From Longimicrobiales bacterium (GTDB lineage: Bacteria; Gemmatimonadota; Gemmatimonadetes; Longimicrobiales; Gaopeijiaceae), in contig OZ250165.1 of assembly GCA_965238005.1 (NCBI GenBank), positions 2,752,001 to 2,816,000 on the forward strand: a DNA stretch of 64,000 bases, in the 5' to 3' direction. Of this stretch, positions 753 through 57,281 are shown one piece after another (the stretch's first letter is position 1; every line of letters starts with the position of its first letter). The position numbers and the translations under genes were made by a program. The notes under the pieces were generated by a model that was not told the origin of the DNA, did no database searches, and was given only the letters and a program-made list of their open reading frames with translations.

Positions 753-755
753 GGC

Positions 756-15009: not shown

Positions 15010-15945
15010 TCAAAATCCGCCTCCAGGGAGCCGTCTCGAGCGCCATGTCGCGAAGCCGTGGATCATCGTTCCTGGAGTCGAGGATCGGTGGAGGTCGTTC
15101 AGCTCGACGATCCGCTTGAGGCAGGCCTGCAGGTCGCCATACTCTTTGAGCACCCGGTCATCCTTCTTGCGGATGGCCTGCTCGATTCGGGCGATCTCGC
15201 GGCGGGCCGCACTGTCGGGTTCCGGAACAGCGGAGGGGCCGGATGCTGTAGATGTGTTGGTCCAGTTCTCGAGGATCGTCAGGGCCCGCTGCAGCTCCCT
15301 CACGGTGCGGACGACGGCCACGACCTCGATGGATCGGCCGCGCTCCCGCAGCGCTTCCCAGAGGCCGCGATGTGCCACGGCCCAGGAGCGTAGCGCCGTC
15401 GTGGTATCGTGTCCGGGATCGACGTAGACGAACACGGCGCGCTCGGCTTCGAGCGCGACCGGCAGCTTGACTGGGAAGTAACGCCGCGTGTTCCCGGCGG
15501 CTCCCCGGTAGAGCCGCGAGGGCAGGAGCCGGCGCTCGATGCCGAGCGCCTCGAACGCGCCGACCTTCTCGGACTCGGTGGGGAGCCACGGCAAGCCGGT
15601 GTGCTCGAGCACGTAGTCGAGCGAGAGCAGGCGCCGCAGGAGCACTTCATCGGAAGCGATCCGGCGGTGGCGGATGTCCTCGGCCCCGAGCGCGCGGTAG
15701 ATCCCGCGCCCGCAGATCCGGCAGACTTTCCGGCCTTCCAGTGTCTCGTCGGCCGCCAGCCTTCGCTCCGACATGGCCCGGACGAACCGAAGAGCCTGCC
15801 AGCGATCGATCCGTAGATAGGCGGAGAGCTGGGCGCGGGTGAACACGCCGCTGTGGAGACAGGCCAGCGCGATCCATTCGGCCTGGCGTCCCGTCCAACC
15901 GAATGGCTCGAGCGCCCTCTCTCGCCCGGCGAGATGGGCGATCAT
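15010..15945 (-). CDS. Uncharacterised last gene of the T4SS operon ('gene X')
   Basis: ATGA overlap with virB8 stop; paralogous to 49330-50304 and to fragment 48368-48595. Confidence 0.8.
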   Translation of the reverse strand: MIAHLAGRERALEPFGWTGRQAEWIALACLHSGVFTRAQLSAYLRIDRWQALRFVRAMSERRLAADETLEGRKVCRICGRGIYRALGAEDIRHRRIASDEVLLRRLLSLDYVLEHTGLPWLPTESEKVGAFEALGIERRLLPSRLYRGAAGNTRRYFPVKLPVALEAERAVFVYVDPGHDTTTALRSWAVAHRGLWEALRERGRSIEVVAVVRTVRELQRALTILENWTNTSTASGPSAVPEPDSAARREIARIEQAIRKKDDRVLKEYGDLQACLKRIVELNDLHRSSTPGTMIHGFATWRSRRLPGGGF

Positions 15946-16358
15946 CGCGGGGCTTCCGTGACCAGGGCCCGGTCGGCCTGCAGGTAGGTGATGAGGATGC
16001 CCATCGGGTTGTAGACGACGAGCTCGGAGGGGATGACGGTGAGGAACGTGAACCGGAGCGTGATCGACCACCGTTCCCTCAGGGTCTCCTGCCCCTGCCT
16101 GAGGTGCACCAGATCGAAGTCGGCGGTCGCGCCGTGCGGCGCCTCCGGTGCGGGGTGGATGCGGAGCACGACCTGCTCGACCTGGTGCTCGGTGTCGGAG
16201 GTGCCGGCCGCCATGGCGGCGACCTCGGCGCCGTCGCGCGTGAACGCGGCGTTCGCCAGCTCGGTCGAGAGGAACCGGAGGCTCCGCGTCCAGTGCTCCT
16301 CGACCGTGGCCTGGCGCCTGGAGTAGAAGTCGGCGATAAACCGGTTCAGGAAGAACTT
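15942..16358 (-). pseudogene. virB8: VirB8/TrbF C-terminal part
   Basis: FLNRFI..FY, NPMGILIT motif; continues the N-terminal part at 38152-38427. Confidence 0.85.
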
Positions 16359-16521
16359 TGCCGATGACGTTCCAAGATAGCCCGTAACGACCCGTAGTGA
16401 CCCTATAACCTCTGAAACTACAGCGTTTTGCGTTACATAGGCTGAGTCGATTCGTCTATTGCCGTGCCGGGACACCTATTGTATTCTCTCTTGTATAGTG
16501 TACTATCAAGTGATCCACAGC
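16341..16521 (-). other. att end of element C (integrase-proximal)
   Basis: Core TTCCTGAACCGG (16341-16352, minus) equals 38416-38427; GCTGTGGATCACTT (16508-16521, minus) equals 38480-38493. Confidence 0.75.
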
Positions 16522-16534
16522 ACGGGAGAATACG

Positions 16535-17689
16535 ATGACACGGCGACCGGCAACCCTTACTGCCGCCTTCGTTCGGACGGTGAGCAAGCCCGGCGTTTAC
16601 GGCGACGGACGCGGCTCGCGCGGCCTGAGCTTGCGCGTTCACCGGATGAAGAGCGGCCGGCTATCGCGCACATGGAGGCAACGGTTGCGCGTCGCGGGGC
16701 GGCTGACGACGACCGGGCTCGGCCGGTATCCCGAAGTCTCGTTGGCGGAAGCCCGGCGCAAGGCCATTGAGAACGCGCGGGCCATCGGCCAGGGTGTGGA
16801 CCCGCGCGGCGGCGGCGTCCCGACGTTTCGCGAAGCCGCCGAAGAGACGATCCGGCTACACGCCGAATCGTGGAAAGCCGGCTCGCCGCTCCCCCGGGAA
16901 TGGCGCTCGACGTTCAGGCTGTACGCCACGCCGATCCGGGACAAGCCGGTGGACCGGATCACGTCGGGCGACGTGCTGGCGTGTCTCCGGCCGGTATGGA
17001 ACGTGAAGCCAGCCGCCGCGCGGAAAGCCCGGAACCGGCTCCGCGTGGCATTTCGCTGGTGCGTCGGACAAGGCTACATCTCGACGAATCCCGTGGACCG
17101 CGCAGTGGCCGCGCTCCCGAAGGTCAACGGCAACGGCACGACGCACCATCGCGCGCTCCCGCACGGTGAGGTTCCGGACGCGCTCCGGCGCATTCGGTCG
17201 GCCAACGCCCCGGAATCCGCGCGGCTCGCCGTCGAGCTGATCGTCTTGACGGCGGCGCGCTCCGGCGAAGCGCGCGCCGCGACGTGGGATGAAATCGACA
17301 CGGCGGCGAAGGTTTGGACGATCCCGCCGGCGAGAATGAAAGCCGGCCGGGAGCATCGCGTGCCGCTGTCCAGCGGCGCGCTCGACGTGCTGCGGGGCGC
17401 CAGCGAGCTTGCCGGCGATTCGCCGTTCGTCTTCCCGATGCGGGCCGGCCGCGCGCTGTCCTCGAAATCCACTTACCGGGTGCTCCAGCTGGCCGGTGTC
17501 ACCGGGACGACGCTGCACGGTTTCCGAACGTCGATTCGTGTCTGGATGGCCGAAACCGGCGTGGACCGCGAGACGGCGGAAGCCGTGTTGGCTCACGTCG
17601 TGCGCGGCACCGAGGGCGCGTACATGAGATCGGACCTGCTGGCGCGCCGGTGCGAAGTCATGCAGGCATGGAGCGACTATGTCGCATAG
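16535..17689 (+). CDS. P4-like tyrosine integrase (element C)
   Basis: Arm-binding N-terminus (GLGRYPEVSLAEAR), TAARSGE, HGFR, LAH, AY. Confidence 0.93.
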   Translation: MTRRPATLTAAFVRTVSKPGVYGDGRGSRGLSLRVHRMKSGRLSRTWRQRLRVAGRLTTTGLGRYPEVSLAEARRKAIENARAIGQGVDPRGGGVPTFREAAEETIRLHAESWKAGSPLPREWRSTFRLYATPIRDKPVDRITSGDVLACLRPVWNVKPAAARKARNRLRVAFRWCVGQGYISTNPVDRAVAALPKVNGNGTTHHRALPHGEVPDALRRIRSANAPESARLAVELIVLTAARSGEARAATWDEIDTAAKVWTIPPARMKAGREHRVPLSSGALDVLRGASELAGDSPFVFPMRAGRALSSKSTYRVLQLAGVTGTTLHGFRTSIRVWMAETGVDRETAEAVLAHVVRGTEGAYMRSDLLARRCEVMQAWSDYVA

Positions 17690-17943
17690 TACGCGGAAGG
17701 ATGGACCAGGGTGGCGCTCAACGTAGACGACGTGTTCATGGGACTTCGACCCCGAACGGCCGTCGGTCGAGTTGCCGGTATCGCCGAGCAAGATTGAAGC
17801 CGATGAGCGGGTCCGCGCCCGGTCCAATGATCCTGCTGGAAGGCCGCTTGCTTGGCCCATCGAGACACGCTCGCCCGAATCTCCTATAATCAGTGCGACA
17901 AGTCTGAGAGGACAGTACGTTCCGGGCCTTGGACATCCCTCCG

Positions 17944-18040
17944 GAACGGATGACGCCGCATGGCTTCCGAGCGATGGCGCGCACCATTCTGGACGAGGTG
18001 CTGGGCTTCCGGCCCGACTTCATCGAGCACCAGCTGGCCC
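17944..18040 (+). pseudogene. Integrase C-terminal fragment
   Basis: MTPHGFRAMARTILDEVLGFRPDFIEHQLA. Confidence 0.75.
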
Positions 18041-18260
18041 AGCGGGCGATCTGGTTGAGGTTGTTGCCGATGCGCGCGATCTGCCGAGTGCGCTCGCGCT
18101 CGATGGCCCGTGCCGGCGCGGTCCACGTTCGCGTCCGCGCCATCGCCTGCCGGAGCAACTCGGACGGCGACACGCCAGCGGCCGCCGCCTTGTCCTGCCA
18201 GGCGGCATGCTCCGCTGGCGTGACGCGGGCGGCGACCGTGACGGTGCGGCGCTCAGACAC
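18036..18260 (-). pseudogene. mobC: MobC/MbeC relaxosome protein, C-terminally truncated
   Basis: RHH-like N-terminus and RIGNNLNQIARWA; breaks at the integrase fragment. Confidence 0.85.
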
Positions 18261-18373
18261 GGGCGCACCGGCGACGGGGTTCGGGTGGCGGCGCCTCCGG
18301 CCCGCCGACTGCCTCGGCAGCGGCGCGGAAGGCTGGGGGTTCTAAGGGGGGCGCAGCGTCCCCTTGCCAGGCC

Positions 18374-18403
18374 GCAGTGTTAAACACTGCGTGGGCTGGC
18401 TTA
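18374..18403 (+). other. ColE1-type oriT-like site
   Basis: IR GCAGTGT/ACACTGC + GTGGG + CTGGCTTA, directly upstream of mobC. Confidence 0.75.
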
Positions 18404-18432
18404 CGTCCCTTACGTGCCTCCCGTGCGACCGG

Positions 18433-18605
18433 CAAACTCGTCCGCCGACGCTTGGAAACCTGCGCCGTCAACATCTCCATACCCGTACATTGAGGAGCCC
18501 GGTTTAGGCCGTGTCAACGACGGGCAGAGTGGCGATGTCCCTAGAGTTCCAGCCACGTACTAGAGGCGGACCCGGCTCCGCCAGCGGACGCTTGAGCTGC
18601 TCCCG
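18433..18605 (+). repeat. ~170 bp diverged repeat copy 2
   Basis: Aligns to 4636-4807. Confidence 0.8.
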
Positions 18606-18643
18606 GAGCACCGGAGGAAGAACCTCCTTCGCGGTCGGCCGAA

Positions 18644-19615
18644 GTGCGTTCTATTCAGGGCGATGGCAGGGTGAGCGCCAGAGTTATGATACCCGGCTGT
18701 CGTGCCAGCACTCGGTCACGTCCGCGCCTCCTACGTACCGTCACAACCTCGCGATTCCGCGGCACGCGGCACTACCCCGACGTGCGCTGGGGCACCTACC
18801 GCCAGATCCAAGCCCGGGGCGGCCAAGTCAGAAAAGGCGAACAGGGCACCCGCATCCTCTCCTTCCAGGACCACCGGCGGATCGCCGTCAACGACGAGCG
18901 CGGCCGGCCCGTCACGGACAACGAAGGCAAGCGCGTCTACCGCTACGAGCGGATGCACGCGCCTGTCGTCCGGCAGTACACCGTCTTCAACGCCGGGCAG
19001 GCCGACGGGCTGCCGGCCCGGCCCGCGCCCGCTGCCGAGCCGCTCTGGAAGGTGCACCAGCAGGCCGAGCAGGTCCTCGAGGACGGAGGGGTGCCCGTCC
19101 GTCACGTGGCGGGGGACCGGGCGTTCTACAACCTGAACCGCGACGAGATCGTGCTCCCCGAGCGTGGACAGTTCCCCTCCGCGAACCACTACTACCAGAC
19201 GGCGCTGCACGAGCTGGGGCACAGCACCGGCCACCCGGAGCGCATGAACCGCGCAACGCTCGTCCAGGGGATCGAGGGCGGGTTCGGGTCGCCGGCCTAT
19301 GCGAAGGAGGAGCTCCGCGCGGAGATCAGTGCCATGATGACGGGCGAGCGCGTGGGCGTCGGCCATGACCCGAGCCGGGGCGCCGCGTACGTCGAGGGCT
19401 GGATCCAGGCGCTCGAGGAGGACCCCCGCGAGATCCGCCGCGCCGCCGCCGACGCGCAGAAGATCTCCGACTTCGTGCTCGCCCGAACCCGCGAGCGTGA
19501 GCCCGAGCGCGAGCCGGCTCCCGTGGCCGCCACCCGCGCTCCCTCCCGAGAGCCCGCCCTCCGGCCGGAGCGTCCGCTGCCGCTCCCGACCCGGAGCTTC
19601 GGCCCGCGCCGCTGA
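18644..19615 (+). CDS. ardC: ArdC-like antirestriction ssDNA-binding/zincin protein, probably 5'-truncated
   Basis: RWGTYRQ...GGQVRKGE, YTVFN, ALHELGHSTGH, YAKEELRAE; homology apparent only from ~18770. Confidence 0.85.
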   Translation: MRSIQGDGRVSARVMIPGCRASTRSRPRLLRTVTTSRFRGTRHYPDVRWGTYRQIQARGGQVRKGEQGTRILSFQDHRRIAVNDERGRPVTDNEGKRVYRYERMHAPVVRQYTVFNAGQADGLPARPAPAAEPLWKVHQQAEQVLEDGGVPVRHVAGDRAFYNLNRDEIVLPERGQFPSANHYYQTALHELGHSTGHPERMNRATLVQGIEGGFGSPAYAKEELRAEISAMMTGERVGVGHDPSRGAAYVEGWIQALEEDPREIRRAAADAQKISDFVLARTREREPEREPAPVAATRAPSREPALRPERPLPLPTRSFGPRR

Positions 19616-19638
19616 CGTCGAGGACGGAGCCCTAGGAG

Positions 19639-20526
19639 ATGTTCGACCGCACGATCGGATCGGACCCGCGTCCCGCCGCGCCGCAAAGCCCCGCTACCTA
19701 CCGCATGCGGGACGGCCATCGCCGAGAATACGACGCGAGCCGGGACCGCGGGTCCACCTCCTTCCGCGAACGGTGCCGTGGGGCGCTCGCCGACATCGGC
19801 ATCTACGGCGCCGTCTCCGTCCGCGATCTCGCCGAGGCCCGCTTCGGCGGCCATCCCTACACCACGCGGCGGGCCGTGAACGCCTGGACCCGCGAAGGGC
19901 TCGCCAACGAGTCCACGGCCAAGGGACCAAAGGGAAGGCCGTTCAAGGTACTGACGCTCACGCGCAAGGGAGCGGCCGCCATCCGCGACCTGGACGCCGG
20001 GCACGGCCTGGACCCCGGACAGCACATAAGGTCCGCCGCTCGTCTCCTCCAACACGCCCAGCTCGCGCACGACACGGCCATCTACCGGGCCTGCGGCCGC
20101 GAACGCCAACGCTTGCTCGAGCGGGGCGCCGCCATCCGGCGCGTACGGCTCGACGGCGAGCTCAAGAGCGCTGTCGCGCGCCGGAGCGAGTCCGCGCGTG
20201 CGAGAGACGGTCGCCGGGCCGCGGACGCCGAGCGGCACCGCGCCGCCCGGGAGCTGGAGCTCCCCATCGACGCCCGGGGCCGCGTGCTCTACCCCGATGC
20301 GCAGATCGAGTACACCGACGCCGAGGGGCGCACCGGACGCGTCAACATCGAGGTCGCATCGGGCAACTACCGGGCTCGCTCCATACGTGCCAAGGTGGCC
20401 GCCGGGTTCCGGATGCACGCAAACGGGCCGGCCGGAGCGCGGGTGCTTAGGGCGCTCGGCTGCGAGGATCATGGCTCCTCCCTACGGGGCCCGGCCGAGC
20501 GGGACCCGGCCGCGATCGAGCTCTAG
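19639..20526 (+). CDS. wHTH + PD-(D/E)xK-like protein (Replic_Relax-like)
   Basis: LAHD...YPDAQIEY...VNIEV pattern; GGAG RBS; family assignment tentative. Confidence 0.6.
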   Translation: MFDRTIGSDPRPAAPQSPATYRMRDGHRREYDASRDRGSTSFRERCRGALADIGIYGAVSVRDLAEARFGGHPYTTRRAVNAWTREGLANESTAKGPKGRPFKVLTLTRKGAAAIRDLDAGHGLDPGQHIRSAARLLQHAQLAHDTAIYRACGRERQRLLERGAAIRRVRLDGELKSAVARRSESARARDGRRAADAERHRAARELELPIDARGRVLYPDAQIEYTDAEGRTGRVNIEVASGNYRARSIRAKVAAGFRMHANGPAGARVLRALGCEDHGSSLRGPAERDPAAIEL

Positions 20527-20535
20527 CACACCCCC

Positions 20536-20850
20536 ATGCAACCCTGGCGTATCAGCGTAGGCCTCAGCGCCGCACTTGTCGGCTCGGGCGTCCTCCTCAC
20601 CGGGTCGCGCCTCGAGTATCTCGCGCCGTTCTGGCCTGTGATCCTGGCGGACCACGGCGTTCCAATTGCCTTGCACCTGGCATTGGCGCTGGCCGCCGTC
20701 TTGGCCGCCCTCTACGCCGTCGCCCGAGCCGCAGGGCTCGCCGACTTGGGACGCCGCGTCGATCTCGTCGAGCGCTCCGTCCGGCGAGGCGAGGGCGATC
20801 CGGAGCTCGCCCGTGCGCTCAAGAGCGACGCCGAGGGCGACTGGGACTGA
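20536..20850 (+). CDS. Small membrane protein
   Basis: Two hydrophobic segments; 9 bp after preceding stop. Confidence 0.6.
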   Translation: MQPWRISVGLSAALVGSGVLLTGSRLEYLAPFWPVILADHGVPIALHLALALAAVLAALYAVARAAGLADLGRRVDLVERSVRRGEGDPELARALKSDAEGDWD

Positions 20851-20959
20851 ACACAGACACTTGTGGGGGCTGGACGCGTCCCGGGAAGACTCACTCCCGA
20901 TGTGGACCGTCTCAGCAGCGTTGCTGCCCGTCTGCACGGATGTCGCACGAGGACCTCCG

Positions 20960-21222
20960 CATGCCGCCCCCCTGGGTCGCGACAGCAAATCGATCCGGGT
21001 CGCGTGGCGGCGATGCTTGGCCTCACGCCGATGGAGAGCCGGGTCGCGGCGTTGCGGGCCGAAGGCAAGACCGTCGGCGAGATCGCCTCGGCGACGGGCC
21101 GTCGCGTAAACACCATCCGTACGCACGCGCGCCACATCTTCAGGAAGCTCGGAATCACCCGGCAAGTGGACCTTGTGCGGCTCGTGCCGTCGACGGCGGG
21201 CGCGCCCCGCACTCGGCGTTGA
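20960..21222 (+). pseudogene. LuxR-type HTH domain fragment
   Basis: GLTPMESRVA...GKTVGEIA...NTIRTH...IFRKLGITRQ; no clear start. Confidence 0.7.
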
Positions 21223-21459
21223 AAGCGACAGGAGCGCTCTGGCGGCTCGGCGCTCGACTCTCCATAATCAATGAGCTGACGGTGGCCTCGGCGCCCTGGA
21301 TGCGCGCGGATATGTAGAGACCGTGCTGGGCTAGGGTCTAATTCGTTCGAGCCGTGGCGGACAGCATCACGGGGCGCCTGCAAAGCATGATCGGGAGATT
21401 TGCAGCAAATGTCGAAAAAGGACTTGACATCCAACGCCCGTTTTGATACGGCTATTATA

Positions 21460-21592
21460 AGCCGAGCCGAGCCGAGCCGAGCCGAGCCGAGCCGAGCCGA
21501 GCCGAGCCGAGCCGAGCCGAGCCGAGCCGAGCCGAGCCGAGCCGAGCCGAGCCGAGCCGAGCCGAGCCGAGCCGAGCCGAGCCGAGCCGAGC
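21460..21592 (+). repeat. Simple sequence repeat (GCCGA)26
   Basis: 26 perfect pentamers at 21461-21590. Confidence 0.97.
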
Positions 21593-22074
21593 TTATTGCC
21601 TAAGCTCAACCCGACCGCCTGAGCCCTCCGCCGCGCCTGCCGGGGCGCGGCCATCCGGCGCCCCCGGTCCGTCCGACCGAACCCGACACGCCCCTTCCGC
21701 CTCGCGGCCCGCGCGCGCGTTCCTCGCCGTCTGCCTCCTCGCCGCCGCGGCTCTGCTCGGGAGCCCCGGCACCGCGCAAGCGCAGACCGAGCTCAGGAGT
21801 GGGTGGTCCGCCAGGCCGGAGGGCGACCGCGCGACAGAAAGCTCGCAGCAGTACGCGGCACCCCGCCTGCCGTGGGCGGAACTCCCGGCATGGATCCGGG
21901 GAGCCAGAGCGAGGCAAAAGCCCCTCGAGTAACCCAAGCCACCGCCCGCCGCATGGAGAACGCGACACCGAAGCGAAGCGGAGCGCCGCGCCGAGGCAGA
22001 AGAAACCAACCACGAGCGGCGCATCCACTGGCGCCGGCCGTGGAAGCAAGCACAAGTACGACGGAGGAAAGAGC

Positions 22075-47733: not shown

Positions 47734-47748
47734 GCGGGAACGGGGAAA

Positions 47749-47961
47749 ATGCGACCGAACGGCGAGTCACTCATCGGTTCTGCCACCGATCTCTCCAACT
47801 TCCTCAGTTGCCGCCACCTCACGGCGCTGGAGATGCCAGTGGCGCGCGGCAAGCGGCAGCGGCCGCACAGGCACGACCCGCTTCTTGACTCAGATTCGCC
47901 GATCATATGGCGACCCGGATCGCGGACCAGAGTGCCTGATGGTGAAGTGCGCGAACCGTAG
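47749..47961 (+). pseudogene. N-terminal fragment of TM0106-like RecB nuclease/helicase
   Basis: SATDLSNFLSCRHLTALE. Confidence 0.6.
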
Positions 47962-47970
47962 GATATCGAC

Positions 47971-48417: not shown

Positions 48418-48595
48418 GGGAGCGACATCGGTCGTGTTCGACAACGGAACGACAAGGCGGGAATTATTTCGGGAGTCCTCTGCCCTTGCGAGGATCGTCG
48501 AGCTGAAGGACCTGCTCCGGTCCGCGCGGCCCGGAACGGCGATCGACGGGTTCACGACATGGCGTTCGAGCCGGCTTCCAGTGGGCGGATCTTGA
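48368..48595 (+). pseudogene. C-terminal fragment of a gene X paralog
   Basis: RIVEL.DL.RS..PGT.I.GF.TWRS.RLP.GG matches end of 15010-15945. Confidence 0.8.
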
Positions 48596-48770
48596 CCCCC
48601 GGACGGCGGGCGTCGGTGGCGTGCCGCGCGTGCACATCGACATCGGGGTGCTTGTGCACGGCATCGCCATTCCGATGTGCGCGCCGCCGATTCCGCATGT
48701 CGCTGGCGGCGTTGCGGTTGCACCACGGCCGCCGGACCGGCGATGCCGTTCCGGAGGGTGCGGCCGTGGC

Positions 48771-48860
48771 GGGAGCGACCCCCCTCTTTCGATGCCTGGT
48801 ACGGCATCGGGGAGGGTTGGATGTGCACGCCCATCCACCCTCCGTCGGGAGGTCGCTCCC
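48771..48860. repeat. Structured element, subtype X
   Basis: GGGAGCGACC/GGTCGCTCCC IR with two internal hairpins. Confidence 0.8.
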
Positions 48861-49069
48861 ATCCAGCAATCCCGTGCGGGAAGGCCATCGGTCACTTGGG
48901 ACGGGCGCGTCCCGGACTTGGCGGCTTGGGCTGTGGCCCGAGCCATCGGGGGTACCCCGGCTTTGCTCGGTGATGCCCGGTTGCCAGACGGCCGGCCGGT
49001 CGGCGAACGGGTGACCCGCCGCCTCGAAGCGGCGCTCAAACCGCCTTCCCGCGTAGGGATTGCTGGATC

Positions 49070-49156
49070 GGGAGCGACCCCAAGGGACGGGGGCAGGTGC
49101 GCAAACACACCTGCGTCCGAGCCCGCACCAGGCCCTTGGACTGGGGGGTCGCTCCC
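49070..49156. repeat. Structured element, subtype Y
   Basis: Homologous to 4087-4174. Confidence 0.8.
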
Positions 49157-49329
49157 CTCCACGTCGGTGCTGCCCAGTGCGGCACAGGCGGCCGGGTGGC
49201 AGCGACCGCAACTCCAAGCGCCCGCACGGGATAGGTGAATCCGGCGTCTGCGCATCTTCACGGGTGCATTGTGTGCATCGACCCCCAACGTCTCATGCAC
49301 GCTCCAGTACGGCACAAGGCGTGGGCTTC

Positions 49330-50304
49330 TCATCGGAAGCGTGCCCCCGCGAGCCGAACCGTCCGCCAGGTGTCGGTGCGTTGCATCAGCCCCCGCCCTG
49401 CCTGCCTGCGCGCCCGCTTCGTCAGCGCGACGCTGCGCTTCATCGCGGCCTGCAAGCCTCCGTACTCCATCAGGACCGGGACATCCCCCTTGATGATGGC
49501 CTGGTCGATAAGGTCGATCTCGCGGCCGATCCCGTGGTCGAATTCGGAGGGGCGGGGATCCCGCGCCCAGTTGGCGAGCACGGTCTCCGCCCGGCTGTCC
49601 TCCTCCGGTGTCCGGACGACGACCACGACCTCGATCCCGCAGCCGCGATCCCAGAGCGCCTTCCAGAGTTCGCGGTGCGCCGCGCCCCAGGAGCGGAGTG
49701 CCGTCGCTGTCTCGTGGCCCGGATCGAGGTAGACGAAAACGGCGCGCCGGGCGTCCAGCGCGACCGGCAGCCGGAGCGGGAAGTAGCGCCGGAGGTTCCC
49801 GGCCGCTCCCCGGTAGACCCGTTGGGGCAGGAGCGGGCGCTCGATGCCGAGCGCCTCGAAGGCGGCCACCTTCTCCGGCTCGGTCGCGAGCCAAGGCAGG
49901 CGGGAATGATCAAGCACATAGTCGAGCGAGAGCAGGCGCCGCATCAGCACTTCCGTGGAGGTGATCCGGCGGCGGCGGCGGTTCCCGACGCCGAGCGCCC
50001 GGTAGATCCGGCGCGCGTGGATTCGGCACACTCGACCGATGCCGTCGATGCCGGGCGGATCCTCTTCGACGGCCACGCCCTGCGCGACGAGGGCGCGGAC
50101 GGCGCGGCGCACCTTTTCGTGGTGGCAACCCAGAAAGCTCGTCCACTGAGCCCGAGTGAACACGCCGCCATGGAGACGGGCGAAGGCGATCCACTCGGCC
50201 TGACGGCCCGCCCAGCCAAATCCCTCGAGTGCCCGTTCGCGTCCCCGCAGGTGGACGATGGCTCCGCTCGCCGCCGAGTTGAACTGCTGCTTCAGCGTCT
50301 CCAT
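49330..50304 (-). CDS. Gene X paralog fused to start of HTH gene
   Basis: GRERALE.FGW.GRQAEWI, RRLLSLDYVL, RRYFP..LPVALD; starts METLK like 58400. Confidence 0.8.
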   Translation of the reverse strand: METLKQQFNSAASGAIVHLRGRERALEGFGWAGRQAEWIAFARLHGGVFTRAQWTSFLGCHHEKVRRAVRALVAQGVAVEEDPPGIDGIGRVCRIHARRIYRALGVGNRRRRRITSTEVLMRRLLSLDYVLDHSRLPWLATEPEKVAAFEALGIERPLLPQRVYRGAAGNLRRYFPLRLPVALDARRAVFVYLDPGHETATALRSWGAAHRELWKALWDRGCGIEVVVVVRTPEEDSRAETVLANWARDPRPSEFDHGIGREIDLIDQAIIKGDVPVLMEYGGLQAAMKRSVALTKRARRQAGRGLMQRTDTWRTVRLAGARFR

Positions 50305-50650
50305 GCCCCTAACGGTGAGGAGCCGTTTGCAAGGAAGTCAACCCGTAGGAAACCTCCTAAATGCCTGTGGCGTTCAGAGACGTTCAGTACGGTACAGGGG
50401 CTGTTGGACACCGCCGCCAGCGGCTTGCCAAACGCCCCGTCGGCCTTCGCCGAAGGCTCCGTCAATGGGTGCGGATCTCGACCGGACGTCGGCCTGCGCA
50501 CGAACGATGCTGGGAATCTTCGAACCGGAGTGCCGTGTTCCGGGTCTGCGGCAGTCCGCAGCCGCGTTACTGCGGCAGATAGCTTGGGCGGGCCTATCTG
50601 GACGGGTCACAGCCGAAGCCCTCCCCCGCTGCTTCGGCGGCGTCCGCCGG

Positions 50651-50790
50651 GCTGGCTCGGAGCACCTTACGGTGCAAGAGCCAGCCTACCCTTTGGGGCC
50701 ACGCTTCGCGGGTCCCCGGCAGGGGCTGGCAAGGGACTCCGCCCCTTCGATCCCCCCTTGAGGCCCGCACTCGGGCGGAGGTCACGGGCG
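50651..50790 (-). other. oriT-like region upstream of mob genes
   Basis: Minus GGGTAGGCTGGCTC; flank homologous to 790-880. Confidence 0.6.
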
Positions 50791-50817
50791 GCTGGCTCGC
50801 CCGTTCTTGTGTCCTAG

Positions 50818-51030
50818 CGGCGCGCCAAGGCCGCGGCAGCCGAGGTCGAGCACGAGCGCACCCGGCAGGTCGCGCGCATCGGCAACAACCTGAACCAGCT
50901 CGCGCGCTGGGCGAACACGCACGCCTCGGCGGTCGAGGCCGTCGCGGTGATCGCTAACCTCGTGTCGTTCGAGCGTTCGCTGCTCGCTGCCATGGCCCGC
51001 TTCGACGGAGATGGCGGCGATGCACATTAA
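50818..51030 (+). pseudogene. mobC: MobC/MbeC lacking N-terminus
   Basis: ERTRQVARIGNNLNQLARWAN; in-frame stop upstream; overlaps relaxase start. Confidence 0.8.
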
Positions 51031-52540
51031 GTGCCTCCGGCGCGGTAGGGGCTCGGCCCGGGCGGCGGTCGACTATCTCGTCGGCGAGCGGGACGCCGAG
51101 GGGCACAGGCGCGAGGGCGTCGAAGTCCTGCGCGGGAACCCGGACATGGTGGCCACCGTCGCCGACTCGCTGGAGTTCGAGCGCAAGTACACGTCGGTCG
51201 TGATCGCGTGGGCGCCGGACGACCAGCCAACCGACGCGCAGATCGGAGCCGTCCTCGACGAGTTCGAGCAGACGGCGTGGGCGGGATTGGAGCCGGACCG
51301 CTACGCGTGGACAGCCGTCCTGCACCGCGAGCGCGGGGGCGGCGTCCACGTGCACGTCCTCGCCGCGCAGTGCGACCTGGAGACGGGGCGCAGCCTGAAC
51401 ATCGCGCCGCCCGGCTGGCAGAGGACCTTCGACCCGCTACGCGACGCCTTCAACCACGAGCACGGCTGGAGCCGCCCGGACGACCCGGCGCGGGCCAGGG
51501 CGCAGCAGCCGGGCCACCTGGCCTACATCGAGGCGTCGAAGCTGCGGGCCGGGCTGGAACACGAAGCCGACCCGCGCGGATTGATCCGCGACTACCTGGT
51601 GCAGCGCGTCGAGCACGGCGCGGTCCGAAGCCGCGCCGACGTCGTCTCCGCCCTGGAGGCAGTCGGCCTTGAAGTGCCGCGCCAGGGCAAGAACTACGTC
51701 ACCGCCCGCGATCCGGACAGCGGAAAGCGGTGGCGGCTGAAGGGAGCGCTGTATGAGCATGACTTCCAACCCGAACGACTTGACTTCCCGGCTGGGCCGC
51801 CAGCTGGAGGCCGACCGCCGGCAGATCGAGGAGACGGCCACGCGCGAGCTCGAGCGGCTCGGCGAGAGCTTGAGCGCCGCCGCAAGCGGCGCGCTGCGTT
51901 CCATCGAGGCCGATACGGCGGCGGCGACCTCACGGGTGAGCGTCCTGCTGAGGCGCGCGTGGCTCCGGTCCCTGGTGATCGGCCTGAGCCTTTTTCTCGG
52001 TATCAGCGGCGGCAGCTGGGCGACGATGCACTGGTTGTCGACGAGCATCGAACGCCGGATCGAGACCTTGGCGACGGTGAACGTGCAAATAGAGCAGGCG
52101 CGGGAGACCCTGGCCGAGATCGAGGAGACGACCTGGGGCGTGACGCTGCGGGAGATCGGCGGGGAGCAGTTCGTGGTGCTGCCGACTGGCACGCTGGACT
52201 ACCCGCCTTGGACCGTGGGCGGGCGGCCTGCGGTGAAGCTGTCGAGAGAGTGAAGGAGCTATATGACCGAGCTAGAACGGCAGTTGACGAAGGCCTTGGA
52301 GAGGTTGTCCGCGCAGTACGAGATGGAACAGCAGCGGCACTCAGAGCAGGTCGAAGCCTTGGAGCAGCGGGTCGAGCAGCAAGCCGCGCAGAGCGAAACC
52401 TTGCGGCAGCAGGTCGCACAGCTGACCGGGCAAGTGACGCACTTGGCCCGGGACTACAGGACGCTCGCCGCGACGTTGCGCGGGCGCTGGAGCTGATGCG
52501 CCAGCGGAGCCGAGAGCGCGATCATGGTCCGAGCCGCTAG
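51020..52540 (+). CDS. mobA: MOBP-family relaxase, MbeA-like
   Basis: AVDYL, VLRGNP, YTSVVIAW, H...HVH, DLETGRSL, GWSRPDDP. Confidence 0.9.
   Translation: MHIKCLRRGRGSARAAVDYLVGERDAEGHRREGVEVLRGNPDMVATVADSLEFERKYTSVVIAWAPDDQPTDAQIGAVLDEFEQTAWAGLEPDRYAWTAVLHRERGGGVHVHVLAAQCDLETGRSLNIAPPGWQRTFDPLRDAFNHEHGWSRPDDPARARAQQPGHLAYIEASKLRAGLEHEADPRGLIRDYLVQRVEHGAVRSRADVVSALEAVGLEVPRQGKNYVTARDPDSGKRWRLKGALYEHDFQPERLDFPAGPPAGGRPPADRGDGHARARAARRELERRRKRRAAFHRGRYGGGDLTGERPAEARVAPVPGDRPEPFSRYQRRQLGDDALVVDEHRTPDRDLGDGERANRAGAGDPGRDRGDDLGRDAAGDRRGAVRGAADWHAGLPALDRGRAACGEAVERVKELYDRARTAVDEGLGEVVRAVRDGTAAALRAGRSLGAAGRAASRAERNLAAAGRTADRASDALGPGLQDARRDVARALELMRQRSRERDHGPSR
51753..52253 (+). CDS. MbeB-like protein nested in relaxase gene
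   Basis: Alternate frame, TM segment, TWGV motif; ColE1-like position. Confidence 0.75.
   Translation: MSMTSNPNDLTSRLGRQLEADRRQIEETATRELERLGESLSAAASGALRSIEADTAAATSRVSVLLRRAWLRSLVIGLSLFLGISGGSWATMHWLSTSIERRIETLATVNVQIEQARETLAEIEETTWGVTLREIGGEQFVVLPTGTLDYPPWTVGGRPAVKLSRE
52263..52496 (+). CDS. MbeD/MobD-like protein nested in relaxase gene
   Basis: MTELERQL..ALE.L coiled coil; AAGGAG RBS. Confidence 0.8.
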   Translation: MTELERQLTKALERLSAQYEMEQQRHSEQVEALEQRVEQQAAQSETLRQQVAQLTGQVTHLARDYRTLAATLRGRWS

Positions 52541-52968
52541 TGGTTCTCGGCAGCGAATCGGTTCCGCCATTGGCGTAGCGCTTGGCCGGGGTGGGCTACG
52601 GAAGCGATCCCCTCGACACGTCCGTCGCATCGACCTCCCGGGTCCCTTACAGACTCTCGTACGGGGGTTGTGGGTTGGCTTTTCATCGAACTCCGCCCGG
52701 ACAAGCCGCATAGTCTGCCAAGTGGCGCCGCAGCGGACCAGCCCCTTGCCTCTTCGTCATCAGCTTGTCCCTCCCCTCTCCTGGGAAAAAGTCCGATGAG
52801 CTGTCAGGCGCCGGATGAGTCCCGGCCGACCCGTTTGACGATGAGGTCGTCCTCGGTGCGGACCGCTTAGTGACAGCCAACGTGCCGACGGCGGCTGGCG
52901 CGGCTGACGAGATTCGAACAGCCATCGACGATGGCAGGCCCTATGGATTCGCCCAGGACCTGGCATTT

Positions 52969-53796
52969 CTAGAATGGGACATCGTCATCCTCTTCATCAT
53001 CCTCTGGAGCTGAGTAGGAAAGGTCTCTAAACCTATCCAACCATTCGTCCAATTCCTTATTCATCCCTCGGTAGCGTCGGGAGATAAATGCGATTGGTTG
53101 ATGCATCTCTTTCAGATAGTCTAGAGTGTGTTGATAGCCTGCCTCCTTCTTGACCTGACTATCATGCACTTCGACGTAACTACTAAGCAGATCTTGGATT
53201 ACCGATTGGGGTAGAGTTTGACGTATCGCAGGTTGTGACGCGAGTCTTCTGTTAAGCTGAAGAATCTCCTCCAACAATTCTCTGTCCGACCGGATCGGCT
53301 CGTCCGGCTCGCCTGCCTCACCGAGGATCTGATTGATCTTTGTTTCAAGATCTGGCCACCATTTTCCGAACACCGTGTCGAGCGTCTTAGACGGCAGTTT
53401 GTTATCGCCGCTTCCGTTGTTGATGACACCGAGCAGCCGGTGCATATCACTCTTCTCAAATTCCGTCGTTTGAAACTGTTTTAACGGACCCGCAAGATCG
53501 GTGTTGTTGATTCCGAACAAGACCGGGCAAACATGAGATTTGTCCAAGCTCTTAGACAGGGCGCCAGCCTCGAACAGAATCCAATCACTGTGAATGTTTT
53601 CCCGTGTTATGCAAAGGATGCCGATCTGCGATTTTGCGAGTTCTGTCGAAATATCGGTCGACCAACGTGTTCCTTTCTCTAGATCTGACGGAGTGAAGTA
53701 CGGCCTAACGAGTTGAAGCACGCCCGGAATCCAATCTCGCAGAGCTTCGCCAACCTTCTTGCTGTACTGCCCCGACCAGCTGATAAACACTTTCAT
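52969..53796 (-). CDS. TIR-domain protein
   Basis: MKVFISWSG, KGTRW, WILFEAGAL. Confidence 0.88.
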   Translation of the reverse strand: MKVFISWSGQYSKKVGEALRDWIPGVLQLVRPYFTPSDLEKGTRWSTDISTELAKSQIGILCITRENIHSDWILFEAGALSKSLDKSHVCPVLFGINNTDLAGPLKQFQTTEFEKSDMHRLLGVINNGSGDNKLPSKTLDTVFGKWWPDLETKINQILGEAGEPDEPIRSDRELLEEILQLNRRLASQPAIRQTLPQSVIQDLLSSYVEVHDSQVKKEAGYQHTLDYLKEMHQPIAFISRRYRGMNKELDEWLDRFRDLSYSAPEDDEEDDDVPF

Positions 53797-53883
53797 GATT
53801 TTTCCTCTAAATTCCGGATACCCTCTGGGAACTCTGCTCTTGCCAGTGGCCTGTGTATCCGTTTCTCACACAGGTCTGAACCG

Positions 53884-53947
53884 ACTGCACTAGCTACAAT
53901 CGCATGAAGAGCCACGCCCGTGTGAATCGCTACCGGGGTAATCTGTG
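53884..53947 (+). repeat. Direct repeat copy 2
   Basis: 53891-53947 identical to 4235-4291. Confidence 0.9.
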
Positions 53948-54213
53948 TAAAAGACCCGCGACGTGTGTTGCACATCGTAGTCCCGGCGCGGCGCGGCGGG
54001 TTCTAATCGGACCCGCGCTCCGGCGGAGTGCGCGGGCGGTGAGCTACCGCCCTTCCTCCGGCGCGTCCTGATACCTGATAGCCCACCGGCACCGCCGCCA
54101 TCAAGGCGGCTCCCTAGCGCACATGGTCCGGCACAAGACCGAGGCGGCGCACCGACGGCGCCAGCAGCTGCCCACTGCCCCGCTCTCTGAATCTCTACCG
54201 AGAGGTGCAGTCG

Positions 54214-54663
54214 CTAAGTGTGACGTTGAAGTCCGCGAGAGTACTCCCGATGCTTGTCGTGGTAGATGTAGCGCATCGTGACGCCTCTGTCGAGAAGTTC
54301 GGCCAGGGTGCAGGCGGTGCGCATGACCTCTGGCTTCCAGTCAGCGAGTACGGCACGGCGGAAAGTGGCGATGTCAAGCTCCGCGACCGAGACGTTCACA
54401 AGCCGGTAGTTGTAGGCCAGCACGTCGCCGAAGCCGTAGACGTTCATCATCTCCGTGTCGCGGTTCAGCTGATAGGGCGTGCTCTTGTTGATCTCGTTCG
54501 CAACTGTGGTCACCACTTCCGACGTAATTGGCACGCGGGAAAAGAAGGTCTGTTCGCCTACCACGTTACCTACCACGCGGCCGATGACACCGCCTACAGA
54601 GGAGAAGGCCAGGATGAGCAGGAGAGCGAAGACTCCACCAGCGATGGAGAGGCTCTTCCGCAT
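54214..54663 (-). CDS. Hypothetical membrane-anchored protein
   Basis: N-terminal hydrophobic helix, protein-like composition. Confidence 0.55.
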   Translation of the reverse strand: MRKSLSIAGGVFALLLILAFSSVGGVIGRVVGNVVGEQTFFSRVPITSEVVTTVANEINKSTPYQLNRDTEMMNVYGFGDVLAYNYRLVNVSVAELDIATFRRAVLADWKPEVMRTACTLAELLDRGVTMRYIYHDKHREYSRGLQRHT

Positions 54664-55029
54664 CAGCTACCTTCCATCCGCTGCCGTGACCTCGTCTGCC
54701 GTGGAGCGGAGCGCCGCAGCAATCTGCATCCGGGCGATCCTCTCCTCAACGTCGAGGAGGTGTCGTTGGTTCTCCACCGTTGCACTCCAGGGGCACGAGG
54801 GAGGTGAGACCCAACCAAGGTGCTCGAAGCGGGTCAGGTCGATGAGTCGGCCAAAGCGGTATTTCGCGTCTTTTGCGCTCGACGTCTGCATGCGACTCCC
54901 CTGGCTGGTGGCAACTCAAATCTTGGCCAATTGGCCGACCGGCGCAAACCGGATTACACCCACGCAGAGCCCGCCGCCACACCTTCTAGGCTTGGGTCGT
55001 GAGGCGGACCAGGGTGGGGGAGGTTGCCT

Positions 55030-55122
55030 GGGAGCGACCCCCCATCTCGGCATGCCTCGATCGGCATCGGGGAGGATGGCGATGGGCATCCCCATCGTCC
55101 CCTCCGCCGCGGGGTCGCTCCC
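55030..55122. repeat. Structured element, subtype X
   Basis: GGGAGCGACCCC/GGGGTCGCTCCC IR with two hairpins. Confidence 0.8.
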
Positions 55123-55239
55123 AGCCAGCAGTCCCTCCGGGAAGGGGGTTCGGGGGGCTCGCCCCCCGCCCGCGCACTCCGCCGGAGCGCGGGTCCTCAG
55201 GGGGGTCGAAGGGGGGGCGGAGCCACCCCTCGCCAGATG

Positions 55240-55270
55240 CCCAATGTTTTACATTGGGTAGGCTGGCTTA
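55240..55270 (+). other. ColE1-type oriT-like site
   Basis: CCCAATGT/ACATTGGG IR + TAGG + CTGGCTTA. Confidence 0.72.
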
Positions 55271-55315
55271 AGCACCTTAGTCTCCGCCCAAGGTGCCGCG
55301 ACGGTGGGCTGCAAC

Positions 55316-56503
55316 CTATGGCTTGCGACTGTCGCCGGTGAGGTACGCAGCCCACTGCTCCATCAGGACGCGCCTGCGCTCGAACAGGTCCGAACGCGCA
55401 TAGGCAGCTTCCACCTTGTTGCGAACCGCATGCGCCAACGCGGCCTCGGCGACCTCACGCGGTGCGTTGGAACACTCGCCGCACCAGTCCCTGAAGCTCG
55501 AACGAAAGCCGTGCGGCACGGCCGCGATACCCAGGTCTCGAAGCAGCGTGGGGAGTCTGCTGCCGGGAAATGCGCGGCCCTCCGGCGACGGGAAAACGAG
55601 ACCGCTGCCGCCGCCGAGCGTCCGCGCCTCGCTCAGTATCTCCATGGCGCGCCCGGACAGCGGCACCCTGTGGGGGCGATGGGCTTTCGTGCGTTCGGCG
55701 GGAACCGTCCACTCCCGAGCCTCCAGGTCGATTTCATCCCAGTGCGCCAAGCGAACCTCTCCCGAGCGGGCCGCCGTCAACACCAGGAACTCGAAGGCGA
55801 GTTTCGTGGTCGGGTAAGCGTGCGACCTCCGCACCGTTTCCATCGCGCCCGCGACCTTCGAGTGAGGCAACGCGCGCATGTGCCGGACTACGGCTTGCTG
55901 TCGGCCGAGCGCTTGACCGAGCACGTCGCTGGCGGGGTTGTCCGGCCGAAGCCCCATCGCCACCGCCCACTTCATCACCGCCCCGATGCGCTGGCGCACC
56001 CGCCGGGCAGTCACCTGCTTGTCGTGCCAGATCGGTGTCAGCACCGCCAGAACGTCGGCTGTCGTTATCTCGCCAACCGGTCGATGGCCGAGCTGTGGGA
56101 ACGCATAGACGCGCAGGCTGGAGACCCAGTCCTTCGCATGCCTGGGGCTGCGCCAGCCCGGCCGCAGCTGTTCCAGAACACGGGCGGCCGCCTCGGCGAA
56201 CGTGGGCATGTCCCGGACCTTGTGCCGCTCGGTACGCGGATCGCCGCCCGAGCGCGCGATCTTGCGGTTCATGAATGCCTTCTCGCGCGCCTCGGCCAGC
56301 GATACCAGCTGGTAGCCCCCGAGCCCCAGCGTGCGGTTTCGACCCTGGATCCGTAGACGCTGCTCCCATCGGCGCGCGCCCGATCGGTCCACGCGCAGAT
56401 AGAGGCCGTTCCCATCGCAGTAGTATCCGGGCTTCGCACTGCGCACGAAGGCCGCGCTGAGTGCGTTATGCGGGCGCCTGCCTCGATGTTTGGGTAAATC
56501 CAT
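55316..56503 (-). CDS. P4-like tyrosine integrase (element A)
   Basis: Close paralog of 32283-33485; catalytic motifs intact. Confidence 0.95.
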   Translation of the reverse strand: MDLPKHRGRRPHNALSAAFVRSAKPGYYCDGNGLYLRVDRSGARRWEQRLRIQGRNRTLGLGGYQLVSLAEAREKAFMNRKIARSGGDPRTERHKVRDMPTFAEAAARVLEQLRPGWRSPRHAKDWVSSLRVYAFPQLGHRPVGEITTADVLAVLTPIWHDKQVTARRVRQRIGAVMKWAVAMGLRPDNPASDVLGQALGRQQAVVRHMRALPHSKVAGAMETVRRSHAYPTTKLAFEFLVLTAARSGEVRLAHWDEIDLEAREWTVPAERTKAHRPHRVPLSGRAMEILSEARTLGGGSGLVFPSPEGRAFPGSRLPTLLRDLGIAAVPHGFRSSFRDWCGECSNAPREVAEAALAHAVRNKVEAAYARSDLFERRRVLMEQWAAYLTGDSRKP

Positions 56504-56662
56504 TTCCTAGGCCCCGTATAAAGTATCGTATGTTATGTACGGGAACATAGCGGACGTACAGGGACCCTGCAACCCGGAGTGTACTCCATAACTAACTGCA
56601 ATCATGATAGTTAGAGAATCATACTGGACACTCATGGAGTGTATCGGAATCCATGCGCAGCA

Positions 56663-57281
56663 GACGGTTGATCAGCTCGGAGAGAAGCCGCGAGGCTTCG
56701 GCGGGCTCGAGCATCTCGATCGGCGTGTGCTCCTCCACGAGCGCACGGCCCGCGTCCACCGTCGAGCGAAAGCGGGCGGCGGCCGCCTCGATCTCGGAAC
56801 CGAGGTAGGTCGGCGCGCCCCCTCGGCGGCGCTTCCACCACTGCATGAGCCGGGAGGCGCTTCCTGTTCTGGGCCCGTCTGCGACCGTGCGTAGACGGGG
56901 ATCGTGCGACCAGACCAGATAGGCTTCGAGCTGCTGGACGCGGCCCGACAGAAACGCACTCCGCTTCCGCTGCGACACCGCTACGATGCCGGAGCCCTCG
57001 TCGTCCGCGGCCTCGGGCACACTCGGCCGACGGAGCAGATAGAAGTAGAGGCGCGTGTCGGCGTCCAAACCCGAGAGCAACCGCTGCCAGCGGCCCAGCA
57101 CGCGGTCGATCTGTTCGGGCGAACGCCCATCCACCACCGCGGGCTCCAGCCGCCCGGCCGCGATCAGCTCGCCCGAGCGGGTCAGGCAGGTACGGCCGTC
57201 CTCGAGCCAGCCCCAGTAGGGCAGCTCCTCGGCCAACGAGCCGGCCGCCTCGTGGTCCCGGAGCTCCGCGGAGATCCTCAC
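56663..57281 (-). pseudogene. virB4: VirB4 N-terminal part
   Basis: Follows virB3; LPYWGW; ends ELINR at 16-bp core shared with 27104-27119. Confidence 0.88.

Follow-up and report, generated by a model that had tools for sequence, protein, structure and literature searches.

When genes of a conjugation machine are found broken into separated pieces, the question arises whether mobile elements have inserted into them and whether the genes could be rebuilt if these elements left. Here we ask this of a stretch of 64,000 nucleotides from a Longimicrobiales bacterium (assembly GCA_965238005.1, contig OZ250165.1, positions 2,752,001 to 2,816,000; hereafter, the window), in which virB4 and virB8, two genes of a type IV secretion system (T4SS), are split. 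An earlier note, made from the letters of the window alone, had read the split genes as the targets of three mobilisable satellites whose excision would restore every frame. The chromosome that holds the window, G000, is 4.84 Mb long and was assembled as a single contig; unless the prefix G000 or chromosomal units of kb or Mb are given, positions are those of the window. The greater part of the window's sequence belongs to a single copy of an integrative and conjugative element (ICE) of VirB type, most of which lies within the window and which spans about 2,723.6–2,810.4 kb of the chromosome. We consider it probable that this copy took up six site-specifically inserted, integrase-bearing elements, later underwent an inversion at a repeat within the gene nikA, and is now inactive and decaying.

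The split genes tile on an uninterrupted paralogous operon

The pieces of virB4 and virB8 are bordered by three short exact repeats (cores), all of which were found at the coordinates reported in the earlier note. The 16-nt core is present once on each strand (56663–56678, minus, and 27104–27119) and the 12-nt core lies at 38416–38427 and, on the minus strand, at 16341–16352; for both, none of 100 shuffles matched the observed count. A third copy of the 12-nt core at 36090 is unrelated to the insertions. The 10-nt core (28542–28551 and 33644–33653) is not significant by itself, at least two copies having occurred in 8 of 100 shuffles, and for this core we take the position on an intact paralog, rather than the count, to be decisive.

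The same chromosome carries an uninterrupted paralogous T4SS operon at G000 757.4–766.4 kb, on which four pieces of the window abut (766379 to 764501, 764516 to 763069, 763078 to 758283 and 758294 to 757408). Where one tiled piece follows another, the two share 16, 10 and 12 bp in turn, exactly the three core lengths. A fit this exact settles the observation that these genes are split. In sequence, the copy of the window differs from the paralog by 5–6%.

In tblastn searches, the three virB4 pieces correspond to residues 1–272, 268–751 and 747–877 of an intact paralog. Joined by script, they form one frame of 814 aa with zero internal stops, which aligns with the paralog as a single gapless block at 97.5% identity and holds both a Walker A (GATGSGKS) and a Walker B (DEAW) motif, just as had been described; the intact paralog itself matches TIGR00929 with an E value of 2.6e-69, below the curated cut-off of NCBI. 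The two virB8 pieces likewise map to an intact paralog, over residues 4–95 and 86–221 (tblastn), and share their core. Intact virB8 paralogs match the Pfam family VirB8 (PF04335; E values of 2e-15 and 2e-12), and the two pieces of the window by themselves have no Pfam match. The open joined frame of ~222 aa that the earlier note had proposed, however, does not hold, as the N-terminal piece carries a TAG at 38413–38415 (~codon 87), directly 5′ of the core, where the paralog has TAT. Because this TAG lies outside the core, precise excision would leave the nonsense codon in place and virB8 would not be restored. What the earlier note had observed is thus partly confirmed, the exceptions being the joined frame of virB8 and the oriT-like sites, for which the search turned up NikA/MobC-like and relaxase genes only.

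Six integrase-bearing inserts in one ICE copy

The backbone of the ICE follows the order AlpA-VirB2-VirB3-VirB4-VirB9-VirB10-X322-VirB6-VirB8-ORF353-T4CP-VirB11-ArdC, where T4CP is the type IV coupling protein and ORF353 an open reading frame (ORF). VirB2, VirB3, VirB6, VirB9, VirB10, NikA and ArdC were identified by profile match, and T4CP and VirB11 were identified too. The genome holds several copies of this ICE, 80–97% identical; two paralogous T4SS operons are intact, and many copies elsewhere in the genome are fragments. When an intact copy is tiled onto 2.72–2.816 Mb of the chromosome, the copy in the window shows six integrase-bearing gaps, namely at ~codon 272 of virB4 (element A), ~codon 750 of virB4 (element B), ~codon 90 of virB8 (element C), a point ~20 bp before the T4CP start codon (element delta), ~codon 260 of T4CP and ~codon 245 of virB11, as well as one further gap of 1.6 kb. 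The last two insertions lie left of the window: T4CP holds an element of 14.4 kb, the integrase of which is a distant one, and virB11 a 6.2-kb element whose integrase is 86% identical to that of element A. The insertion site of delta has empty counterparts in two other ICE copies. The earlier note had missed these two neighbouring elements, the fourth element within 1–14721, and the inversion of 27104–38427 described below.

Each insert has a short duplicated core and, beside its integrase, an att arm of ~160–190 bp. The integrases of elements C, B and A (Int-1, Int-2 and Int-3, respectively) all combine the domains Arm-DNA-bind_3, Phage_int_M and Phage_integrase (PF00589), the architecture of P4-type tyrosine recombinases, and the distance from start codon to core is 182, 158 and 159 bp, which agrees with the P4-like integrases that had been placed 160–190 bp from each core. 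The four integrases that were aligned agree throughout in six residues of catalytic type (R, K, H, R, H and Y), and we take these to occupy the catalytic positions.

The elements lack a mating-pore gene set of their own. A tblastn search with VirB2, 3, 4, 6, 8, 9, 10 and 11, X322 and T4CP gave no match inside the inserts (16353–27103, 28552–33643 and 38428–56662), where the only backbone paralogs are those of ORF353 (49330–50304), AlpA (26051–26531) and ArdC (18767–19588). Element A encodes an MbeA-like relaxase (E = 3.7e-30), NikA/MobC and an AlpA-like protein and, judged by these genes, is an integrative mobilisable element (IME). Element B, in which only a decayed nikA-like stretch was found, is by its gene content a 5-kb remnant, and for element C profile searches gave no relaxase match, a 67-nt remnant of nikA being all that it retains. 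Hence, of the 'mobilisable satellites' proposed earlier, the integrative elements inside T4SS genes stand, but 'satellite' is a loose term for a relaxase-bearing IME, a 5-kb remnant and an element without a recognisable relaxase. Elements C and delta carry restriction and defence cargo; that of delta (772–14369) is a defence-type island with GmrSD, a Gp49-like toxin–antitoxin-like pair, a type I restriction–modification (R-M) system with fused M/S subunits, and DUF5131 with a TcmP partner.

An inversion, most likely at a nikA repeat

The backbone genes of this copy lie on both strands: the stretch from the middle piece of virB4 through the N-terminal piece of virB8 (27104–38427) is on the plus strand, and virB2, virB3 and the N-terminal piece of virB4, as well as the C-terminal piece of virB8 with ORF353, are on the minus strand. 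The two ends of element A are likewise far apart, the integrase end (Int-3) lying beside the N-terminal piece of virB4 at 56.6 kb of the window and the other (26916–27095) beside the middle piece of virB4; this second end is an 83% inverted copy of the integrase-distal arm of element B. Apart from the integrase genes, the sole notable inverted match between the two insert regions flanking the flipped stretch is a segment of 67 nt with 91% identity (18037–18103 and 50846–50912), which codes for the central, MobC-like part of NikA. As it now stands, the nikA ORF (17736–18260) matches the NikA profile over residues 3–74 only and then continues as non-coding-looking read-through, and the nikA copy that precedes the relaxase gene has a stop 11 codons upstream. 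If, however, the 5′ half of nikA at 18104–18260 is joined to the sequence past 50912, a 113-aa frame of NikA/MobC type results, which ends at the relaxase start codon. Two loci of related genomes retain what appears here in separate places: in L062 the two nikA halves are contiguous, and in L058 segments of 18.1–27.1 kb of the window are collinear with, and downstream of, an integrase of the Int-2/Int-3 (alpha) clade at the ~codon-272 site of virB4 (site 1; that at ~codon 750 being site 2).

Taken together, these observations make recombination at the 67-nt nikA repeat common to the two elements the most likely cause of the flip of 27104–38427. Elements A and C would have been inserted in opposite orientations, and homologous recombination at the nikA segment would have inverted all that lay between, leaving the N-terminal piece of virB4 and the C-terminal piece of virB8 facing opposite to the rest. 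Before this event, element A would have measured ~14.8 kb and comprised Int-3, the TIR protein, relaxase, NikA, the ArdC-like gene, the Calx-beta protein and AlpA, while element C, at ~14.2 kb, would have comprised Int-1, the ORF353 paralog, the type III R-M system and the TIGR04255 protein. The inversion puts the ends of A and C in inverted order, and simple excision is therefore impossible for both. An inversion mediated by an integrase was rejected as first choice, given that both att junctions of element A look normal and that A and C differ in their cores and integrases (44% identity). Nor do we favour reading element B as no more than a site-1 element that landed at a secondary site, its distal junction having the full 10-nt core of site 2 and differing from that of element A over ~50 nt.

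Target bias within the genome

The chromosome gives 26 integrase matches, of which 22 full or near-full ones were followed; two short fragments and two matches of only 32–35% identity were left out. At 12 of these 22 P4-like integrases the edge of a conjugation gene, broken or adjacent, lies 150–187 bp outside the start codon, and one of the distant integrases left out is 156 bp from a T4CP fragment. By comparison, a transfer RNA (tRNA) gene lies within 1.5 kb of 1 of 24 integrases. Nine sites are used: ~272 and ~750 in VirB4, ~90 in VirB8, ~245 in VirB11, ~202 in ORF353, and, for T4CP, one upstream and three at ~197, ~260 and ~510. Un-inverted simple insertions that keep both gene halves are found in T4CP (twice) and virB11. 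Closely related integrases (84–87% identical) can sit at different cores that have only a short AGA..G(..GATC) pattern in common. The beta-clade integrases at G000 329247, 709882, 876226 and 2109973 have a common core, GGTACTCCTTCT; three of them lie in T4CP at ~codon 510, and the fourth, with the same 12-nt core in an unrelated flank, may mark a secondary site.

ORF353 is both a target and a cargo gene. The family (~320–350 aa) occurs in the ICE backbone after virB8 and on inserted elements (15010–16071 and 49330–50304 in the window; G000 733116, 777987 and 2747782), and the ORF353 of the paralogous ICE copy at 757 kb is cut at residue 202 by an integrase element. It has no Pfam match below an E value of 0.01 (only chance-level ones of 0.013–0.074), no NCBIfam match at 0.01, and only unnamed clusters among its Atlas matches; an AlphaFold model built from 8 paralogs (mean predicted local distance difference test score, pLDDT, of 56.9) was too poor for a fold search.

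Related integrases in other genomes

Species-representative genomes, scanned with an alignment of alpha integrases, yielded 78 loci. Sixteen of these (L055–L070) encode integrases 83–89% identical to Int-2 and Int-3 and come from metagenome-assembled genomes (MAGs) labelled Longimicrobiales, one being labelled 'bacterium' only. In half of the sixteen, from five MAGs, residues 1–272 of virB4 end ~160 bp before the integrase; residues 1–245 of virB11 hold that position in two, and the remaining six have neither gene, the 16-nt core still being at the junction in four of them. The locus L064 is a simple 4.3-kb insert in an otherwise continuous virB4, with site 1 filled and site 2 empty; site 2 is also empty in L066, and in L060 the N-terminal piece of virB4 has a frame break. 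Five other genomes yielded 10 full-length VirB4, five pieces covering residues 265–877 and five covering 1–269/272, the pieces occurring in four of the five genomes, and all five of the 265–877 pieces continue through codon 750. On these counts, virB4 site 1 is a recurrent, dedicated site.

The picture changes with distance. Among integrases 59–73% identical, mostly from Vicinamibacterales MAGs, none of 50 flank ORFs was a T4SS ATPase, VirB8 or T4CP, and the flanks held housekeeping-type genes, transposases, other recombinases and two ArdC genes. The survey of homologous integrases for flanking virB fragments that the earlier note had suggested thus succeeded for the 83–89% relatives (virB4 in 8 of 16, virB11 in 2 of 16) but not for the 59–73% relatives. 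Integrases of other clades are found in virB11, in the gene for the coupling protein and in a neighbouring gene that is conserved. Judging from these flanks, the bias towards conjugation genes is real and depends on the integrase clade. The earlier proposal that three hits in one operon betray selection is sustained in that the choice of conjugation genes is not chance, as the recurrence in 8 of 16 loci indicates, but the insertions at virB4 site 2 and in virB8 are singletons in the sets examined.

Several further loci deserve mention. The 59–73% relatives of Int-2 (L071–L132) are very numerous in MAGs of Vicinamibacterales (Acidobacteriota), with several per genome, which suggests that the family has spread between phyla. 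An integrase 62% identical to Int-2 (L046, G002:C9) follows AlpA-VirB2-VirB3 and only the first ~120–170 residues of VirB4, which suggests yet another insertion site in this gene. Relatives of Int-1 that are 96–98% identical occupy three other kinds of site, and by our own reading their junctions have only a loose GTTC...GAAC pattern in common; a metagenome scan with Int-1 returned 38 loci, all 27–51% identical, and no close relative. A circular copy was sought at L068, whose 7.6-kb contig ends inside the integrase gene; the lost end is absent from the other end of the contig, which thus gives no sign of a circle.

Features of the window

The features of the window and the grounds for their assignment are collected in Table 1.

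Table 1. Backbone genes, inserted elements and repeats of the window, in order of position
Feature	Position	Strand	Contents	Basis
Element delta, begins ~630 bp before the window	1..14721	+	Integrase C-terminal part 33–752	Pfam, NCBIfam, junctions compared with two empty sites, tiling
Delta core copy CCCTACGG, integrase-distal junction	14722..14729	-		Junction comparison
ORF353, backbone gene after virB8	15010..16071	-		tblastn paralogs, also on inserted elements
virB8 C-terminal piece	15942..16352	-	Ends in 12-nt core 16341–16352	Tiling, tblastn
Element C, integrase-proximal part	16353..18036	+	att arm, Int-1 (16535–17689), non-coding stretch into which the chimeric nikA ORF runs	
67-nt nikA repeat, copy 1, proposed crossover	18037..18103	-		
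Element A, integrase-distal part	18104..27103	+	nikA 5′ half (to 18260), ArdC-like, two backbone-like ORFs, LuxR-like, (AGCCG)n, Calx-beta protein, AlpA-like gene, distal att arm 26916–27095	
virB4 middle piece (residues ~268–751)	27104..28551	+	16-nt core 27104–27119, 10-nt core 28542–28551	Tiling, tblastn
Element B, 5.1 kb	28552..33643	-	Distal arm 28567–28746, fn3-repeat protein 28923–31328, decayed nikA-like 31741–32250, Int-2 32283–33485, proximal arm	
virB4 C-terminal piece (residues ~747–877)	33644..34047	+	Begins with 10-nt core	Tiling, tblastn
virB9, virB10, X322 (no assigned function), virB6	34054..38146	+		Profiles, tblastn
virB8 N-terminal piece	38149..38427	+	TAG 38413–38415, 12-nt core 38416–38427	
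Element C, integrase-distal part	38428..50845	+	TIGR04255 protein, insertion sequence (IS) fragment, type III R-M 42712–47733, ORF353 paralog 49330–50304	
67-nt nikA repeat, copy 2	50846..50912	+		
Element A, integrase-proximal part	50913..56662	-	nikA 3′ end, MbeA-like relaxase 51011–52540 (+ strand), TIR-domain protein, Int-3 55316–56503, proximal arm	
virB4 N-terminal piece (to 57281; core 56663–56678), virB3, virB2, AlpA-like gene	56663..58400	-		

Some local sequence features were seen besides. In element A, ~27 AGCCG units at 21460–21594 stand ~200 bp upstream of the gene for the 1292-aa Calx-beta protein (21799–25677) and could form a slippage-prone, phase-variable tract. Within the fn3-repeat gene of element B there are five tandem repeats of 276 nt (29461–30864), the first four 98–100% identical. 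The integrase-proximal arm of the alpha elements (33616–33653 and 56604–56662) reads outward as a short ATG-led frame, M-D/E-C-I-G-I...; that of element B is fused in frame to the C-terminal piece of virB4, giving a 143-aa ORF with its own start, and that of element A runs antisense into the N-terminal piece. The segments 18383–18412, 32197–32226 and 55250–55279 have inverted copies nearby and could be candidate origins of transfer (oriT) or regulatory sites.

Explanations for the split transfer genes

The insertions, the duplicated cores, the homology of att arms between elements, the recurrent site use by one clade and the inversion breakpoint are direct observations. In the reading that we favour, integrases would use conserved stretches of conjugation genes as attB, presumably because the host can do without these stretches, which are there whenever a helper ICE is and which travel with it. 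The ICE copy of the window would by now be inactive and decaying, and transfer functions could be provided in trans by the intact paralogous T4SS operons that the genome also holds. We prefer decay to a working switch because of the TAG in virB8, the inversion, the number of inserts, the fragmentary ICE copies, and the unoccupied exact attB of the paralog; a working switch is possible elsewhere, L064 being an example of a clean insert. It follows that the claim that the frames of all genes can be restored on excision fails here, with virB8 keeping its TAG and simple excision of A and C blocked by the inversion.

Several findings nonetheless weigh against this reading. The paralogous operon at 757–766 kb holds exact empty attB for all three cores, unoccupied. 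Elements B and C have no recognisable relaxase as far as their genes tell, so that, of A, B and C, only A shows grounds for the label 'mobilisable'. Ten of the 22 integrases followed have no adjoining conjugation gene, their neighbours being a tRNA-Val gene, another recombinase, sequence of IS3 type or sequence without an assignment, and among 20 integrase loci of related genomes 16 likewise have no conjugation gene within ±1.5 kb. Not every insertion is likely to be an event of its own, and some are probably copies, the beta-clade flanks at G000 329247 and 709882 showing 1 difference over the 270 nt compared. The insertion at virB4 site 2 is a singleton among the copies examined. For close relatives of Int-1, none of five readable junctions was at virB8 and none of 12 loci searched had the 12-nt core; the virB8 insertion may thus be a secondary-site event. 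Finally, the short contigs of four public runs contained no attP or element-specific attB junction, a result that is uninformative given the intact paralogs. One such contig joins 28541 to 33644 and another crosses the same site with 31 other letters between, and, as the genome has uninterrupted virB4 paralogs with the same 10-nt core, these joints say nothing on excision.

A regulatory lock would explain the same insertions by supposing that elements in essential transfer genes excise when conjugation is induced, restoring the genes and coupling ICE transfer to IME mobilisation. Its attraction lies in the intact cores, the undamaged virB4 pieces with their 97.5% identity to the intact paralog, the full-length integrases, the AlpA-like genes on both the ICE and element A, the use of the same virB4 site in 5 other MAGs, and the clean insert of L064 in an otherwise continuous virB4, and the hypothesis is in print for streptococcal IMEs, as the text of PMC5357655 has it. 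We nevertheless judge it unlikely for this locus, where a TAG remains in virB8 after any precise excision, A and C can no longer leave by simple excision on account of the inversion, many of the genome's ICE copies are fragmentary, and a single genome holds both filled and exact but empty attB sites; in addition, the N-terminal piece of virB4 in L060 is frame-broken. Less probable still is that the elements gain by disabling the resident ICE, as a competitor or a cost, and use other intact ICE copies for their transfer. The three T4SS ATPases and VirB8 are essential parts of the machine, and that precisely these are hit, that six inserts crowd one ICE copy while two paralogous operons stay intact, and that the elements carry restriction and defence cargo would all suit such parasitism; yet neutral accumulation in a dead ICE predicts the same pattern, and delta leaves the T4CP coding sequence untouched.

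It could also be asked whether the split genes and the inversion stem from misassembly or strain mixing in a metagenome-assembled genome, since several ICE copies of 80–97% identity in a single-contig assembly are repeats of the kind that can mislead assemblers. We regard this as very improbable: the same integrase–virB4 junction with its core recurs in 8 loci of 5 other assemblies, the junctions coincide precisely with short cores and their att arms are homologous from element to element, and the sole repeat at the inversion breakpoint is only 67 nt long. As a wider and tentative proposal, which we think somewhat doubtful as it stands, a radiation of P4-type tyrosine integrases in Longimicrobiales may have left tRNA genes, each clade adopting as attB a different conserved codon stretch of conjugation ATPases or neighbouring transfer genes; such hitchhikers would reversibly lock or permanently kill the ICE that carries them and stock it with defence cargo, and, by flipping the stretch between att sites in inverted order, an integrase could even reconstitute virB4 here.

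Comparison with known systems

P4-family integrases usually target the 3′ end of a tRNA gene. The elements of the window resemble P4-family islands and satellites in their three-domain integrase and in the place of its gene at one end beside att, and differ from them in that only 1 of 24 integrases has a tRNA gene close by and no phage-related hijacking genes were seen. The skin element in sigK (Kunkel 1990) and the comK prophage (Rabinovich 2012), for which, as cited in PMC5357655, regulated excision has been demonstrated, are similar in that a gene is split by an integrated element and, in principle, rebuilt by precise excision; our case, in contrast, is known from sequence alone and one of its target genes has an extra stop. 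Tyrosine-integrase IMEs in the putative oriT of ICEs of the Tn916/ICESt3 family (Puymege et al. 2015, as cited in PMC5357655) have the type of integrase and the helper-ICE target in common with the present elements, but according to that citation the target there is the non-coding oriT, whereas here it is coding sequence of transfer ATPases and VirB8.

The closest parallel is offered by streptococci. In the account of Coluzzi et al. 2017 (PMC5357655), of 16 streptococcal IMEs with a serine integrase, 12 lie in traG (VirD4), maff2 or snf2 of ICEs of the Tn5252 superfamily, and excision is proposed to restore conjugation; IME insertion in ICE genes is reviewed by Guedon et al. 2017 (PMC5704250). 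To the extent that these texts describe them, both groups consist of small integrase-bearing elements without a mating pore that insert site-specifically in conserved ICE genes and disrupt them; in both, several inserts per ICE are possible, one gene can offer two sites and integrase relatedness tracks the target, and the idea that excision restores conjugation applies to both. Unlike the serine integrases and Gram-positive ICEs of those accounts, the window has P4-type tyrosine integrases, a VirB-type system and a Gemmatimonadota-like genome, and the targets of its genome are VirB4, VirB8, VirB11, T4CP and ORF353, with at least nine sites in this one genome and six inserts in the ICE copy of the window. 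In the open-access literature we found nothing else on the same habit with virB4, with tyrosine integrases or in Gemmatimonadota/Longimicrobia. The nesting of IMEs inside ICEs, documented until now, in the sources cited, for serine-integrase elements in streptococcal ICEs, is thereby extended to a little-studied diderm phylum, to tyrosine integrases and to the core ATPases of a VirB-type system, and ICEs are seen as scaffolds that gather defence islands. Close integrases at different cores form a natural series for the study of how tyrosine integrases change target, and, with so many sites filled in some related genomes and empty in others, the hypothesis that excision restores conjugation can be tested directly. 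Thus, the elements of the window work like the streptococcal IMEs that target ICE genes, without being members of that group.

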